A DNA stretch of 24,646 nt, from positions 1 through 24,646 of the IMG/VR virus record IMGVR_UViG_2663763286_000010; one strand, given 5' to 3'. The notes beneath the pieces were generated by a model. It was not told the DNA's origin and did no database searches. It saw nothing but the letters and a program-made list of their open reading frames with translations. The translations under genes were made by a program, and so were the position numbers. This document shows, piece by piece, positions 1-24,646 of the stretch. How positions within the stretch are numbered: the stretch's first letter is position 1; the number at the start of each line of letters is the position of its first letter. Origin of the DNA: a virus (lineage: Duplodnaviria > Heunggongvirae > Uroviricota > Caudoviricetes).

Positions 1-327
1 TCATTTTTTCCAGAGGCGGTCGAACTCCGCCTTCGCAAAATAAGCGGAAGCCTGGCGAAGGATATCGTTACTGCGGCGCAGTTCACGATTTTCACGTTCC
101 AGCTCTTTCAGACGCTGACGTTCAGCGGTGGTGAGTCCACCATCACCACTCCCGGTATCCCGCTCATGCTGACGAACCCACACACGCAGAGTCTCTGGTG
201 TACAGCCAATCTTTGGGGCAATGGAACAAATTGCCGCCCATTGTGAGTCATATTCGCCCTGACTTTCCAGAACCATACGAACTGCCCGTTGACGGACCTC
301 GGGGGAAAAACGAGTATTTTTAGTCAT
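1..327 (-). CDS. IS3-family transposase OrfA (helix-turn-helix plus leucine-zipper N-terminal protein), 108 aa
   Basis: [60 protein letters not shown]...[36 protein letters not shown] is a typical IS3/IS629-group OrfA; it sits directly inside the terminal repeat. Confidence 0.9.
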
Positions 328-381
328 CCTGTTTACCTCTTTCTCAGGGAGTTTAGTCTCCAGGATTTCCGGGGCGGTTCA
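1..381 (-). mobile_element. Partial IS3-family insertion sequence (IS629-like), terminal inverted repeat ending at 381; the rest of the element lies beyond the window start
   Basis: Reverse complement of 342-381 reads TGAACCGCCCCGGAAATCCTGGAGACTAAACTCCCTGAGAAAGAGG, an IS3-family terminal repeat (TGAACCGCC...) followed inward by orfA. A matching end occurs at 24486. Confidence 0.85.
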
Positions 382-933
382 CTTTCTGAGAATTTCTTCT
401 GTAATTGCGGACTGATCTATCGTGCCAGTAATACCCATTGTCCGGGCCAGGTCGTTTATGGGAATACTGATCATCCCTCTGGAAGTCAGAAACATCTCGC
501 CGAATGTGCCGCCGGTAGTCTCCAATGTGCTTTCTGGTATTAGAACTGTGCCATAGGGATGACGCTCAAGGTCCACCGGTGCATATATCGGATCCCATAA
601 AACAGAAATACCGTTAAATTCGCGGTAAATTGTCTGGTTTATAGGACGTTCAGTTCCCTTAAAGTGGATCTCATCAAGCCGCTGTTGTAACAACATCGGA
701 ACGGAAGATGAGTCCGAGGTTCTGATAGTAAAGAACTGGCCAAGTTCATTTGTCCTGGTCTCCAGATCCTCCTTGCTCATGGAGAAAATAGACTTCCGGT
801 TGGTAATTCGCTCCAACCATGGGTCAACAAAGGTGTCCATCATTGACTGAACCAAATCAGCCAATGATTTATAGAGCAATGACTTTTGCTTAGCTGATGT
901 AAGCCGGTTATTAAACCAGGAACGCTGCATCAC
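379..933 (-). CDS. Phage tail/baseplate morphogenesis protein, probably truncated at its 3' end by the IS insertion (position of P1 gene 16)
   Basis: 184-aa ORF whose stop codon TGA (379-381 on the minus strand) is the first three bases of the IS terminal repeat TGAACC; 4-bp start/stop overlap with the upstream gene (930-933). Product assignment is by position in the P1-like tail block only. Confidence 0.5.
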   Translation of the reverse strand: MMQRSWFNNRLTSAKQKSLLYKSLADLVQSMMDTFVDPWLERITNRKSIFSMSKEDLETRTNELGQFFTIRTSDSSSVPMLLQQRLDEIHFKGTERPINQTIYREFNGISVLWDPIYAPVDLERHPYGTVLIPESTLETTGGTFGEMFLTSRGMISIPINDLARTMGITGTIDQSAITEEILRK

Positions 934-2363
934 TCCTCCTCATACGAAATATTAAAGGTGGAGTTTTCTGTATCCAGATAAACGAAATCGTAAAAGCCGT
1001 TGGACTCATTCCACTCGACAAATTCCAGATAAAAGTCGCGGAAATAACCCAGCGTTTCGATAAACGCCCAAACGTCTTTTTTCTTAATCAGGATGTACTT
1101 CCCGACGCGGTTCGGATCAAAGAAAGTTGAGTCGCGCCCAAATTTTGTTTCCAGTGCCGACTTCAGCTCATCGGTCACATTCTCAATGGTCAGGCTTGCC
1201 GATATCCGTCCGGTGATGGTTATCTTAAATGGTAGTTTTCTGACCTCCTTATACGAGAATTTCTTGTTCAACTCATTCGGCACCTTCTTAAAGGCAGCCA
1301 GGATCATTTCTTCAAGCTCTGACTGGCTTTTATTTGGATGCCACCCTGAAATAAATATCTTATTGATATTCCGAACATTATAAGCACCATCTAATTTCTC
1401 TTGCTGGCCTTCGCCCCATGCCTTTACCCATGACAGTCCCGGGATGTTACGCACCAGAAAATACGTATAGTCCCCGCCCCATACGACCTGATCATCATAG
1501 GCAAGGTAATATTGTGCACGGTTACGTGTGATCTCCGTTGTTTCGGCATCGGTACCTGCGGTTATAGGTGTCGTTGTCTTAACTGAAATCAAATTAGCTA
1601 AATTAGCCGCAGAATCGACAGGCGTCAGGTTTTGGCCAGCAACCAGGGTTATATCGCCGTTGGTGCACCATACCTTAAGCGTAATGGTCGAGCCTTCTGG
1701 CGGTATTTGCCCAATTAGCCCATCACCGAATCGAACCCCCAACTGCTCGGATGGTTTATAAAACTCAACGTAGACCTGGCTTTTACTACCGGCTAACCGG
1801 AACATAGTGCTGGAAGACCACTGCGTGGTCTTACCATCGGTCGTCACGAATACTTCCAGCTTATAGCAGACAGCAGTGAGAGCCTTTGATAACACGACTT
1901 CCAGAAATTCTTTGGCTACCGTAACGGTATATGTCACCTCCTGGATTTCCAACTGTGCCACTTCTACCGTACCGGTGCCGTCAACCAACCTGCATACATC
2001 CATAGTCATGTAAGGGTACTGGTCGTCAGATATTAAAGGCATGTTTTTGGGGATTACCGCTGGGGCATCTTCACTTGTGGCGGTGATCTCAATCATCCCC
2101 GATGACGGTGTTGGCTTGGTACCAACGTAACTATTCGTTTCTGCCGCTGCCAGGATAGAGGAACGCCGCGTCGCGGTCGATATAAAGCCTTCAGCCAGCG
2201 CCGCATCGGCATACTGAAAGCACCTGTAGACAATCTGGGTAATAAACAATGTCAGCATCGAGACAAATTGAGAGCCGACAAACTTCGACCAGAATGAATC
2301 TTTCTCGACAAGCTCTTCGAACTCTGCACGAATACTGTCTTTAGTCGGTGTTGTTTTACTCAT
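930..2363 (-). CDS. Putative baseplate protein (position of P1 BplA)
   Basis: 477-aa ORF in the minus-strand tail block immediately downstream of sit and the 119-aa gene; overlapping stop/start junctions (ATGA at 2360-2363) typical of a phage morphogenesis operon. The name is by synteny with P1, not confirmed. Confidence 0.5.
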   Translation of the reverse strand: MSKTTPTKDSIRAEFEELVEKDSFWSKFVGSQFVSMLTLFITQIVYRCFQYADAALAEGFISTATRRSSILAAAETNSYVGTKPTPSSGMIEITATSEDAPAVIPKNMPLISDDQYPYMTMDVCRLVDGTGTVEVAQLEIQEVTYTVTVAKEFLEVVLSKALTAVCYKLEVFVTTDGKTTQWSSSTMFRLAGSKSQVYVEFYKPSEQLGVRFGDGLIGQIPPEGSTITLKVWCTNGDITLVAGQNLTPVDSAANLANLISVKTTTPITAGTDAETTEITRNRAQYYLAYDDQVVWGGDYTYFLVRNIPGLSWVKAWGEGQQEKLDGAYNVRNINKIFISGWHPNKSQSELEEMILAAFKKVPNELNKKFSYKEVRKLPFKITITGRISASLTIENVTDELKSALETKFGRDSTFFDPNRVGKYILIKKKDVWAFIETLGYFRDFYLEFVEWNESNGFYDFVYLDTENSTFNISYEEE

Positions 2364-5283: not shown

Positions 5284-6081
5284 TTACGATTTACGCCTAA
5301 AAAAACCTTTTCTACGGCTGTTATCGTCATTGCCACGAATCACATCGGCAATAGACTTTCTGGCACCATTAAGCGATCCACCAACTTCTTTTGATATCCC
5401 GCCAAGCTCCTTCCCTGCGGCCCACAATGGACCAGCAACGGCATAACCTAACGCATCGACGGCACGAGTCTCTGAAGGGTTACCTATGCCTTCAGCTACT
5501 TTTGACAGTTTTTTTAATAAACCTGATTCAGCATTTAGACGCTCATCATCCTCTTTGCGCCTGGCCTTTTCAGCACGGGCATCTTCCGCTGCGGCCTTAC
5601 TCCCTGACTTTCCAATAAAACGACCACGCGCATCGCGTTGGTTTTGGCTTTTTTGCGCACCGCCTTTTTGACCGAACATTTCGCGAGCGTGTTCGGCTGC
5701 TTCGGTCCGTTGCGCCTTTACATCTTCTGTTATAGCCTTCTTGCGTCGTTTTTTACCCTTTCGCGTAGTTGATTTGGCCTGCGGTTCCTGTAGAGCAACA
5801 TCCTCCTGAACTACACGAGAAACGTCCCCTAAATTAAGCCGTTTCATTGCCTCAACAATAGGGTCCACTGATGGCGCATTGGCCACAAAGTCTGGCCGGG
5901 AATTTTCGATTGTGCGATTTAATGCCGACACACTGCGAGAGACAGGATCAACTGTAGCAACTCGCCCCCCTTTCAAATCTTCAACGGCTTCCCGAATACC
6001 TGCAAGCTCTTCCAGCTCTTTTGCGCTGGCGGTTTCAACCGTCCTTATCACATCGTCAATGTTGGCGTTTTTTCTTTCCAT
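5284..6081 (-). CDS. sit: Sit-like protein, N-terminal segment (265 aa), terminated by an in-frame TAA that separates it from the 2716-5136 segment
   Basis: Same frame as 2716-5136 ((5284-2716) is divisible by 3); translating 5137-5283 by hand gives 49 sense codons and no stop. The stop lies next to an A7 run (5299-5305). Confidence 0.7.
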   Translation of the reverse strand: MERKNANIDDVIRTVETASAKELEELAGIREAVEDLKGGRVATVDPVSRSVSALNRTIENSRPDFVANAPSVDPIVEAMKRLNLGDVSRVVQEDVALQEPQAKSTTRKGKKRRKKAITEDVKAQRTEAAEHAREMFGQKGGAQKSQNQRDARGRFIGKSGSKAAAEDARAEKARRKEDDERLNAESGLLKKLSKVAEGIGNPSETRAVDALGYAVAGPLWAAGKELGGISKEVGGSLNGARKSIADVIRGNDDNSRRKGFFRRKS

Positions 6082-8401: not shown

Positions 8402-9586
8402 TCAAGCCTTAAGAGGCTTTGTGTATGTTCGAGGAATCCATCCAGTAATAAACTCATCCCCTGATTTAACCTGCACGTAAAGCCATTGACGATCTTTCTT
8501 ATCTAAAATAGCAACAATTGTGTTTTTGCCAATGCATTCAATCACTTCACTATTTAAAGAAGGACTGACATGTAATCTTACGTTATCACCAGTTATAAAC
8601 CTAAAGCCATTGAGATCTTCCCACTTAATTTCTGTATTTTCTTTAATTAATTTTTGTTTTGATATTGGTGCATCCTCATATAGGGATACAGAATATGATT
8701 CTGTCTTGTGTATTTGCGATAAGATTTGTTCTTTTGCATAATCAGCAATAGCGCCAAGCACCACTTCTGTCAAAAGCCACATAATAATAAACTGAAGCGG
8801 GTGAGGGAGCGACTTAAATGAATCAATGAACGTCGAACTGGATTTATTTAATTCTTTGTCTTGAACATCACTTTCGTTGTGAGATGTTTCAATAGCACCT
8901 TCGACATAAGCCTGTGCAATTGATGAAAGACTTTGCTCCATTATTTGATGTAATGAAGCCTTTTGCGCAAGGGTATATTGTTTTAATGATTCTGTTATTT
9001 CATTATTTAAATCTATCTTATGACTTACATTTTGTCGCAATTCATTAAGCATTGCTTGCATGTTATTTAAACCAGCTTGCTTAGTAAGCATCTCGAACTG
9101 GTTTCGTGACGGCATAGCAATTTCTGCCTGTTTCCTTAGCATTTGAATGTATTTATTGGCATCACGCGGGAAAAAAGCCAGAGCCTGTTTCTGTAAAATA
9201 TCAATATGTTTACGATACTCGTTGCCTATTTCTGCCAAATTCGGTCTATGCGAAAACTGTTTTAGAATAGAATCACTAATTAAGGCTTGTGTACTCAACT
9301 TTGCAAGTTGTTCTTGAGCATGGCGCGATATTCTTAACTGTTTTTGCAAGATTGCCATATGTTCTTTATACGATGGAATGATTGCGTTTTTTTGCAGTTC
9401 TGCCAACTGTCTAACCAAATTATTAGAAGCATATTCTGATTTTAATAAATCACTTGCCGATGTATATCCTGGCATTTTGATTTTACTTAAATTATCTCGC
9501 CAAGTAATATTTGAATCTCTATTATAGAGATCGCTTACTGAGCCAAGTGCAAGTTTTTTAATATCCTTCACTTTATTCACCGTCAT
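8402..9586 (-). CDS. Accessory membrane protein: N-terminal coiled-coil region with internal LxKQ repeats, one predicted transmembrane helix, C-terminal SH3b-like domain
   Basis: 394-aa ORF in a markedly AT-rich stretch; repeated motifs (HMAILQKQLRIS, HIDILQKQALAF, YIQMLRKQAEIA, FEMLTKQAGL); hydrophobic segment FIIMWLLTEVVLGAIADYA; C-terminus LNGFRFITGDNVRLHVSPSLNSEVIECIGKNTIVAILDKKDRQWLYVQVKSGDEFITGWIP resembles bacterial SH3 domains. The true start may lie downstream of 9586. Confidence 0.6.
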   Translation of the reverse strand: MTVNKVKDIKKLALGSVSDLYNRDSNITWRDNLSKIKMPGYTSASDLLKSEYASNNLVRQLAELQKNAIIPSYKEHMAILQKQLRISRHAQEQLAKLSTQALISDSILKQFSHRPNLAEIGNEYRKHIDILQKQALAFFPRDANKYIQMLRKQAEIAMPSRNQFEMLTKQAGLNNMQAMLNELRQNVSHKIDLNNEITESLKQYTLAQKASLHQIMEQSLSSIAQAYVEGAIETSHNESDVQDKELNKSSSTFIDSFKSLPHPLQFIIMWLLTEVVLGAIADYAKEQILSQIHKTESYSVSLYEDAPISKQKLIKENTEIKWEDLNGFRFITGDNVRLHVSPSLNSEVIECIGKNTIVAILDKKDRQWLYVQVKSGDEFITGWIPRTYTKPLKA

Positions 9587-10079
9587 CTTGCTTTAAACAC
9601 CCATCATTTTTAGCTTCCTTGTAAATACTTGAAATTCCATCAAGAGAGAATGATGTAATTCGACGCGATCCGATATATACATCCATGTTTTTTTCTTTTG
9701 TGGCTGACGCTGACTTCCAAAAAGAATACCATTCCCTACGATTTGGAGCAGTGTTTTGCGTGCCAATATTAAAGCTATCCGGACCAACAATTAAGGTAAT
9801 TACATCAGCTTTACGAGAAATTGTGTCGCGTGTAGAAAAATCAGCATTCTCTTTCCCTCCGCTTACATACAAATTTCTTCCGGCGATATGATCTTCGGAA
9901 CCTTCCCTTGCTCCAGCATCACAAGAAAAGTTAATTGTATAACCATCGTCATTGGTTGCAGAGATTTCTCTCCATCCTTGCTCACCTCCTACCGTCCAAG
10001 CGGTAGAACCTGCCATTGCTGATAATGGCAGAAAAGAGGATATTAATAAAAAGCTATACAATGACTTATACAATTTCAT
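9573..10079 (-). CDS. Accessory secreted protein with N-terminal signal peptide (168 aa)
   Basis: N-terminus MKLYKSLYSFLLISSFLPLSAMA fits a Sec signal peptide with an AxA cleavage site; overlaps the start of the downstream 394-aa ORF by 14 nt (translational coupling); AT-rich codon usage. Confidence 0.6.
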   Translation of the reverse strand: MKLYKSLYSFLLISSFLPLSAMAGSTAWTVGGEQGWREISATNDDGYTINFSCDAGAREGSEDHIAGRNLYVSGGKENADFSTRDTISRKADVITLIVGPDSFNIGTQNTAPNRREWYSFWKSASATKEKNMDVYIGSRRITSFSLDGISSIYKEAKNDGCLKQDDGE

Positions 10080-10167
10080 ATTTTTATCCTTTTGGTTTTA
10101 GATATTATAGGCATAGTCCATATTGTTAGGTCCACTATGCCCAGAGAATTTAATATTATTCATTAAA

Positions 10168-10659
10168 TTATGGAGCTACACCCGGCCCCCTGGCCCGCTC
10201 TTCAAGCGTACCCTGCACGTTTTGATGGCGCATTCCTGGGGCATTTCTGATTGAGTCAATGCCATTTCTTCCAACATCTTCTTTATTAACGGTATTGCTC
10301 GCCACCAGCACCCCCCAGCTAGGGATAGCAAAATCAGGAGCGGTTTCGCATGCCTTTACCATATAATCGAAAGAGCTTCGATTGATCTCGTTTGCGTCGG
10401 GATTTAATAGGCGAGAATATTGATATTTAGCATTTTCGTTGGTTGCGACTTTATACAGTTCTTGCTGCACCATCGCTTCAGAAAGTTTAAGGCGTTTCAT
10501 ATCTGACAGTAACTTCTTGCGCATGGATTCGTCTTGACTGACAGCAAAGCCGTAAACGTGCCCAAGGTATTTCGTATAATCGGTACAAATCTCCTTTACG
10601 CTTGATGCTGCATTAACAGTCCCAGCCATAAATAATAACGGTAGTAATAGTTTTCTCAT
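10168..10659 (-). CDS. Accessory secreted protein with signal peptide and C-terminal Sit-like motif; candidate superinfection-exclusion protein
   Basis: The ORF track gives 10168-10686, but the likely start is the internal ATG at 10659 (MRKLLLPLLFMAGTVNA signal peptide), preceded by AGGTGAGG. The C-terminus RNAPGMRHQNVQGTLEERARGPG matches Sit GRGMRREVVQGTLEERARGKG and RNSPGMRKNNAPE. Confidence 0.6.
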   Translation of the reverse strand: MRKLLLPLLFMAGTVNAASSVKEICTDYTKYLGHVYGFAVSQDESMRKKLLSDMKRLKLSEAMVQQELYKVATNENAKYQYSRLLNPDANEINRSSFDYMVKACETAPDFAIPSWGVLVASNTVNKEDVGRNGIDSIRNAPGMRHQNVQGTLEERARGPGVAP

Positions 10660-10755
10660 TATAACCTCACCTGCCTTATAACTCATTTAGGGTACATATT
10701 TTCGCCTTTAAAAAAAAGAGGTTATTAGATCTACTTGTGTATTTATTAAGCAAAC

Positions 10756-24123: not shown

Positions 24124-24395
24124 TCCGAATTATGTGGATAGTTTTTATAAGCGGTGATAACTACCCAGGCTTTCCCGTCAGCACACATCCTATATCCCGC
24201 CAGCACACATTAGCAACCCGTCAGCACACATTTTTTTCCCTCCAGCGCACATCATTTTCCCTCCAGCACACATCGCGAAAGGCTTCTAAGCCAGACGGGG
24301 CGCGGCCTACGACGATCAGGGATCTATATGGATCTAATTGGGATCTGTATGGACCTGATTATTGGATCTATCCAGTGGATAATGTGGATAAGTGA
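24124..24395. promoter_or_regulatory. oriR plasmid origin of replication: DnaA boxes at both ends (TGTGGATAG at 24133-24141 (8/9 match); GTGGATAAT/TGTGGATAA at 24375-24391), five GATC Dam sites in 7-bp repeats (about 24314-24370), and the incC iterons
   Basis: Five GATC sites in GGATCTA/GGATCTG heptamers; DnaA box consensus TTATCCACA present as reverse complement; arrangement matches the P1 oriR. Confidence 0.85.
24170..24274. repeat. incC: incC: five 19-bp iterons overlapping the repA promoter (part of oriR)
   Basis: Five tandem copies of TTTCCC(G/T)(T/C)CAGCACACAT-like sequence at about 24170, 24192, 24214, 24235, 24256. Confidence 0.9.
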
Positions 24396-24485
24396 AAAAC
24401 CGGCCACTGAGGACCGATTTCTGTGAAGGGTTGAAGCGAATTAGTTGTCGTTTTCCGTACCTACTTCTTCGATCAACAAACTACT

Positions 24486-24646
24486 TGAACCGCCCCGGGT
24501 TTCCTGGAGAGTATTTTATCTGTGAACTCAGGCTGCCAGATCATTATTTCCGATGGAAGCATAATAAGCTTTTTCTGCTTCTGCCGGAGGAATATGGCCC
24601 AGCCTTTCCAGCAATCGTCGATTGTTATACCAGTCCACCCACGTTA
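24486..24646 (-). mobile_element. Partial IS3-family insertion sequence (IS629-like), terminal inverted repeat starting at 24486 and extending beyond the window end; same orientation as the copy at 1-381
   Basis: TGAACCGCCCCGGGTTTCCTGGAGAGTATTTTATCTGTGAACTC at 24486 onward is the opposite-end repeat to the one at 342-381 (imperfect inverted repeats). Confidence 0.85.
24528..24646 (-). CDS. IS3-family transposase OrfB, C-terminal 38 codons only (gene continues beyond the window)
   Basis: Minus-strand translation ...TWVDWYNNRRLLERLGHIPPAEAEKAYYASIGNNDLAA* ends 41 bp inside the terminal repeat, as expected for an IS3-family orfB. Confidence 0.7.
   Translation of the reverse strand, partial: TWVDWYNNRRLLERLGHIPPAEAEKAYYASIGNNDLAA

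Follow-up and report, generated by a model that had tools for sequence, protein, structure and literature searches.

A probable simple IS629 insertion in baseplate gene 16 of a decaying P1-like plasmid prophage

Introduction

P1-like phage-plasmids such as RCS47, JL22, SJ46 and pO111_2 carry an IncY-type repA/par replicon, and insertion sequences (IS) are common passengers in them; in pEcoUTI1e, for instance, an IS1203 follows closely on gene R. Gene 16 of P1 comprises 278 codons (P1 38366-39202). Its product, gp16, is a baseplate wedge protein like T4 gp7 that forms a triplex with two copies of BplA in the cryo-EM of the P1 tail and baseplate; Asp199 of gp16 touches BplA+ Tyr328, and the unmodelled gp16 residues 240-278 together with a gpR dimer are the proposed site of tail-fibre attachment (10.1101/2025.07.21.665459). 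Two structure entries (PDB 9ay5 and 9vzk) carry the molecule Gp16. Knocking down 16, sit, R or S by CRISPRi lowered P1 plating below about 5e-5 in each case, and the four genes are scored as essential in P1, 16 also by earlier genetics (PMC10695390).

IS629/IS1203 is familiar from STEC genomes and prophages, where the element has TGAACCGCCCC termini, makes a 3-bp duplication and interrupts prophage genes, just as in the case described here. It is a main driver of small structural polymorphism in both O157 and non-O157 STEC. A report on Stx prophages contains the statement that the position of IS629 alters phenotype (PMC10810198).

Here we describe a P1-like element in which gene 16 is cut by IS629. 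It agrees with P1 in residues 1-183 of gp16 (99% identical) and in the context bplA-16-LPs-R-S, and its backbone is 98-99.5% identical to those of the P1-like phage-plasmids over the compared region, with the same type of replicon; gene 16, however, is intact (278 amino acids [aa]) in those elements, whereas here the tail module is broken at three places. Unlike P1 gene 16 mutants, this gene was cut by an IS and not by laboratory mutation or knockdown, and the N-terminal two-thirds of its product may still be made. The kind of event and the element are already known, and the case is one of ordinary prophage decay. It is unlike the described IS629/IS1203 insertions of STEC in its target only, codon 183 of P1 gene 16, a site of insertion that is absent from 5,426 complete Escherichia coli genomes and from PLSDB.

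Sequence source and analysis

The window (the whole stretch of DNA that was analysed, 24,646 nucleotides [nt]) was identified by exact-sequence look-up as the whole draft contig JXWD01000056.1 of assembly GCA_000948825.1, and both of its ends are therefore assembly breaks. Homology to P1 was located with megablast, and open reading frame (ORF) lengths were compared with P1 for the other window genes having P1 counterparts. ORFs on the far side of the insertion were predicted from internal starts (MFDGLTLY... and MITLNEISD...) and then subjected to exact protein look-up.

Results and discussion

P1 homology begins at window position 381, corresponding to P1 38653, and past the IS the window is collinear with P1 38.6-62.9 kb, in the order 16, bplA, pmgA, sit, pmgB, tub, pmgC ... 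21, 22, 23, parB, parA, repA, oriR. Reading frames of P1 length were found for bplA, pmgA, pmgB, tub, pmgC, ant1, kilA, repL, bplB and pmgG and also for 21, 22, 23, parB, parA and repA; they include repL, sheath/capsid genes and repA/par. The oriR iterons, GATC sites and one DnaA box are recognisable.

The first 381 nt of the window are the left (IRL-proximal) part of an IS629/IS1203 element of the IS3 family (1-381, minus strand). The contig breaks inside this IS; the left end of the window is an assembly break within a repeated IS and no biological terminus. The stretch is at least 99% identical to many E. coli copies of IS629/IS1203 (964 E. coli records match the IS at that level or better, under the RefSeq label "IS3-like element IS1203 family transposase"), and at 366 of 381 positions (96%) it is identical to the annotated complete 1310-bp IS1203 of plasmid pEcoUTI1e. 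An IS3-family element had been named in a preliminary description made from the sequence, and the family is borne out. Its orfA (1-327, minus strand), encoding a 108-aa HTH transposase N-terminal protein, is complete (PF01527 HTH_Tnp_1, E=1.4e-12). In this family orfA is followed by an overlapping orfB (DDE/rve transposase) that is made by a -1 frameshift. From orfB, the last 38 codons are seen at the IRR-proximal contig ends (window 24528-24646; JXWD01000133.1 3-119), the N-terminus (HTH_21) is visible in a sister contig (L008), and the middle ~770 nt are in no contig of the locus. The IRL, TGAACCGCCCCGGAAATCCTGGAGA (357-381, minus strand), matches the IRR at 24486-24510 in 22 of 25 positions; reverse-complemented, the IRR reads TGAACCGCCCCGGGTTTCCTGGAGA, and it is found at window 24486-24510 and at JXWD01000133.1 137-161. 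Imperfect terminal inverted repeats (5'-TG ... CA-3'), as the IS3 family requires, are thus present, and so is the target duplication of 3 bp (sometimes 4 bp) that is a trait of the family (AAG, window 384-382 and JXWD01000133.1 162-164). On these features, we assign the element to an IS629/IS1203 isoform of the IS3 family, with a predicted length of ~1.3 kb.

Read on the minus strand, the junction of IS and host gene is ...ATT CTC AGA AAG|TGAACCGCCCCGGAAATCCTGGAGAC..., which in the window stands as ...CTCAGAAAG|TGAACCGCC. The AAG before the junction (382-384, minus strand), the codon of Lys183, is the left copy of a 3-bp target-site duplication, a second AAG following the IRR on contig JXWD01000133.1 where P1 has only one. 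Next comes the TGA that stops the cut gene 16 (379-381, minus strand); from the junction sequence and the ORF, these bases are the first three of the IRL, and the earlier proposal that the terminal repeat supplies the stop of the 379-933 ORF is confirmed. Because the IS repeat starts with TGA, an element placed in this orientation and frame will stop translation of the host gene right at the junction, and the identity of the stop codon is no coincidence.

The host gene, previously called only as a tail/baseplate gene, is P1 gene 16: codons 1-183 of 278 occupy 382-930 (minus strand), with 99% identity to residues 1-183 of P1 gp16. It starts with the ATG at window 930, which is the P1-annotated start and overlaps the bplA stop as ATGA, as in P1; the solved gp16 structure begins MQRSW, in line with this start. 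The product accordingly has 183 aa, and not the 184 aa first counted from a GTG at 933, which is not a start. The gene immediately upstream in the same late operon, bplA (930-2363, minus strand), is intact, with 477 aa and Gp6-like_1st and Baseplate_J domains.

Aligned with full-length homologues, as the preliminary description had advised, the product lacks 95 of 278 residues, all at the C-terminus, and its frame ends after Lys183. The homologues do not end at that residue: P1 gp16 and the protein of pEcoUTI1e both run to 278 aa, continuing ...EEILRK-FNQFVKPLLPLHIVFDG... (...ILRK-FNQFVKPLL...). Identity and location directly downstream of bplA fit the Gp16 family (PF26903) and the full ~278-aa length is absent; gene 16 of the window is a pseudogene fragment of this family. 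The PF26903 label was taken from precomputed annotation of the exact protein; in the Pfam profile search no model matched the gp16 fragment, and the PF26903 model is presumably newer than the Pfam copy searched.

Gene 16 is called elsewhere as two ORFs of ~184 aa and 82 aa, which prompted residue 184 to be considered as a natural domain boundary; this was rejected. Such two-ORF calls (~180-187 aa plus 82 aa) in unrelated assemblies (L023, L025-L031) go with frameshifts or N runs at varying positions, and are probably sequencing or scaffolding errors with no common break point. The 82-aa ORF is the one given by the default internal GTG start of gene 16.

Both predicted far-side ORFs were found in the protein collection. 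The 82-aa ORF maps to JXWD01000133.1 (2,663 bp) of the same assembly, GCA_000948825.1, and the 64-aa ORF, which is WP_044861179.1, to a single 2,663-bp contig. JXWD01000133.1 carries, in order, 161 nt of the IS629 right end, AAG, TTTAATCAGTTCG... (gene 16 codons 184-278), the 16-R intergenic region, R and S. Its 161 nt of IS629 are the exact reverse complement of window 24486-24646, and its junction reads ...GGGGCGGTTCA|AAG|TTTAATCAG, leading into codons 184-278; TGAACC follows AAG in the window, and GGTTCA precedes AAG and TTTAAT in JXWD01000133.1. At this site P1 has ...CTCAGAAAGTTTAAT, with one AAG only (codon 183). A trinucleotide that is single in P1 and stands on both sides of the IS argues for simple transposition with a 3-bp target duplication, the very duplication that had been suggested as a check. 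The flanks, joined without the IS and with one AAG, add up to 278 uninterrupted codons, and the encoded protein departs from that of P1 in 5 amino acids.

The preliminary description had left the native 3' end of the gene and the tail-fibre genes after it as displaced or lost. Inspection beyond the window, also recommended there, found the rest of the locus on JXWD01000133.1 (IS629 right end, the gene 16 C-terminus, R and S'), and of the two outcomes displacement stands and loss falls: codons 184-278 follow the IRR and AAG, R is intact, and S is present but cut by IS600. The 3' end of gene 16 thus appears to be still there, moved away by one IS length. The AAG duplication and synteny suggest the link between JXWD01000056.1 and JXWD01000133.1, the IS interior lying neither in the window nor in any sister contig. 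Two database proteins, WP_044861094.1 (183 aa, "phage tail protein, partial") and WP_044861179.1 (64 aa, "hypothetical protein"), look like halves of one IS-split gene. Hypothetical read-through partial proteins (...QETRGGSKFNQ...) had no match by exact protein look-up, nor had the reciprocal junction (IRR, 0-8 nt, TTAATCAG...) by exact pattern scan of metagenome, genome and viral contigs.

Gene R encodes 144 aa and differs from P1 at one position. Between 16 and R, the late promoter LPs retains its -22 and -10 boxes, so the fibre operon is not necessarily silenced by the IS629 insertion. S matches the 949-aa S of a relative up to codon 521 only, after which TGAGGTGTACTGGCAATAGCGGACAC... is the end of IS600, also of the IS3 family (JXWD01000133.1 2537-2663). 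The S::IS600 insertion is found in L010, L017 and several sister assemblies as well, and its junction is covered by no complete E. coli genome. Tail-fibre gene S is present, then, but broken independently of IS629 in 16.

The stop codon in sit, to which the preliminary description had referred, is confirmed. This tape-measure/transglycosylase gene has 1121 codons, and one C->T substitution, at window 5286, makes codon 266 a stop (Q266*; 5284-5286, minus strand), leaving ORFs of 265 and 806 aa. Across the gene, sister contigs L004 and L014 differ from the window at this position alone, and Q266* is private to this strain.

The 183-aa fragment of gp16 retains the N-terminal contacts Arg9, Asp53, Asn73/Asp73 and Trp112, and is without Asp199 and the proposed fibre-binding end. 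Judged from the DNA, three P1-essential genes are broken in this strain (16::IS629, sit Q266* and S::IS600). Since 16 is essential, the prophage should fail to build working baseplates, and by P1 genetics an element with 16, sit and S disrupted should form no infectious particles; the earlier suggestion to that effect is reasonable, all three genes being essential in P1 (PMC10695390). Most probably this P1-like plasmid is non-infectious; the best description is that of a decaying P1-like prophage kept as a plasmid.

The finding matters little past annotation. In phage-plasmid counts or judgements of transduction risk, the P1-like plasmid here should be scored as a defective prophage; the case shows that a contig ending in an IS is not to be taken as a sign of deletion, since the missing half was present in the same assembly; and the lineage would be a small dated example of the stepwise decay of a phage-plasmid into a plain plasmid.

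Other draft genomes and read sets have the 16::IS629 junction too, in ~20 contigs. At least 10 contigs (10 in one look-up, 14 in another) encode precisely the 183-aa product; in 9 further contigs the contig edge comes 3-4 nt short of the junction and the gene gives a 182-aa partial. An identical AAG|TGAACCGCC junction is present in L004, L005, L006 and L008 (other read sets and assemblies); it was seen in Logan contigs of three sequencing runs and in GCA_000617785.1 (JHMZ), which is STEC O177:NM strain 2010C-4558 (PMC4125765). C-terminal contigs start exactly at codon 184 or 185 in several assemblies, and the accession numbers of C-terminal proteins adjoin those of N-terminal partials, which suggests that the two kinds of partial come from the same genomes. 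No record among 5,426 complete E. coli genomes or PLSDB plasmids spans the left junction (window 230-530), which also had no match by exact pattern scan of genome contigs; likewise, no record in the complete E. coli genomes or PLSDB spans the right junction (24250-24646).

Two contigs of GCA_036669735.1 break at the site, which is the end of one (40.5 kb) and the beginning of the other (56.5 kb); the sum (~97 kb) is a full P1-size genome. S is intact there (949 aa), no IS lies beside oriR, and no IS sequence is visible in the two contigs; from the common position we infer that the break is due to IS629. The likely order of the lesions is 16::IS629 first, because GCA_036669735.1 breaks there with S intact and no IS at oriR, then S::IS600 and the IS629 beside oriR, and sit Q266* latest, because it is absent from sister contigs.

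A further protein (P0012, on 2 contigs) is a 182-aa partial gp16 with the same end residue as the junction contigs and Asn73 for Asp73; it stems from this insertion in a backbone that differs slightly, or else the site was hit a second time.

The window contig ends at 24646 because a second IS629 end lies there, beside oriR. It consists of the right (IRR-proximal) 161 nt of the element (24486-24646, minus strand), is in the same orientation as the left copy and equals the first 161 nt of JXWD01000133.1. It stands ~80 bp past the oriR DnaA box, in the 3' end of an upfA-like gene, and its flank is AGT, with no duplication in common with the left copy (AAG). Two direct IS629 copies thus flank a potentially self-replicating 24.1-kb segment and are a substrate for recombination.

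We consider it very probable that the locus arose by simple transposition of IS629 into gene 16, which displaced the 3' part of the gene and disabled the prophage while the plasmid persisted. IS629/IS1203 (~1.3 kb) would have entered gene 16 of a P1-like plasmid prophage directly after codon 183, duplicating the 3-bp target AAG, with its transposase genes co-directional with gene 16. Translation of the late operon pmgC-tub-pmgB-sit-pmgA-bplA-16 would now end at the TGA of the IRL and yield a 183-aa wedge-protein fragment; codons 184-278, LPs, R and the 5' half of S would lie beyond the IS, moved by its length. The sit nonsense mutation and the IS600 in S would be further damage in this strain, and with full-length replication and partition reading frames the element could persist as a plasmid.

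A variant of this history, which we think unlikely, adds a later recombination between the direct IS629 copies to a single simple insertion, so that the 24.1-kb segment would now be a separate mini-replicon of ~25.4 kb or lie elsewhere. The mini-replicon would hold 16'-sit-tub-...-23-par-repA-oriR, closed by one IS copy, apart from the 16 C-terminus, R and S'. It would account for IS629 at both window ends in the same orientation (IRL at 381, IRR at 24486) and for contigs of the same extent in sister assemblies (24,096 and 24,521 bp), and the segment, with oriR, repA, parA, parB and parS, could replicate alone. IS-bounded contigs, however, are the usual outcome of short-read assembly and uninformative on linkage, and several assemblies retain small IS-bounded contigs with the 16 C-terminus, R and S', as would be expected if one unbroken plasmid had a number of IS copies. 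All IS629 copies are collapsed in the assembly, and in this strain later recombination between them, with an inversion or the excision of a 24-kb segment, carries a small probability.

More speculative, and of low probability, is the proposal that 16::IS629 marks an STEC lineage (including the O177:NM isolate) in which a P1-like phage-plasmid has become fixed as non-infectious and is decaying stepwise, or that the gp16 fragment acts as an exclusion factor. The exclusion variant is less likely still; in it the 183-aa fragment, whose N-terminus with the contacts to BplA and gp26 is preserved, could poison baseplate assembly in incoming P1-like phages.

An IS-mediated deletion, with the IS as its end point and the 3' end of 16 and the tail-fibre genes gone, would be in keeping with a window that stops inside the IS and with two window IS ends whose flanks differ (AAG and AGT), as such deletions leave. 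It is already refuted by JXWD01000133.1 and retains hardly any probability: the same assembly has the IS629 right end, AAG, codons 184-278, R and the 5' part of S, the AAG is duplicated just as in a simple insertion, and a relative has ~97 kb over two contigs flanking the site. Least credible of all is a chimeric join of IS and gene 16 made in assembly, to which the place of the junction, 381 nt from the contig end and in repeat sequence, might point, since the same junction is in independent assemblies and in Logan contigs of separate runs (L004-L006, L008) and the reciprocal junction has a matching 3-bp duplication.

Two other parts of the window depart from P1. At 8402-10686, different ORFs stand in place of P1 simC, simB and simA, encoding a 394-aa SH3_3 protein, a 168-aa YfjT-like protein and a 172-aa protein with a weak PTP-like phytase match; this is an accessory-region swap versus P1. 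The stretch from oriR to the right-hand IS (24407-24485) has no match to P1 itself and 100% identity with other P1-like plasmids, e.g., NZ_CP055201.1, and is a case of backbone mosaicism beside oriR.
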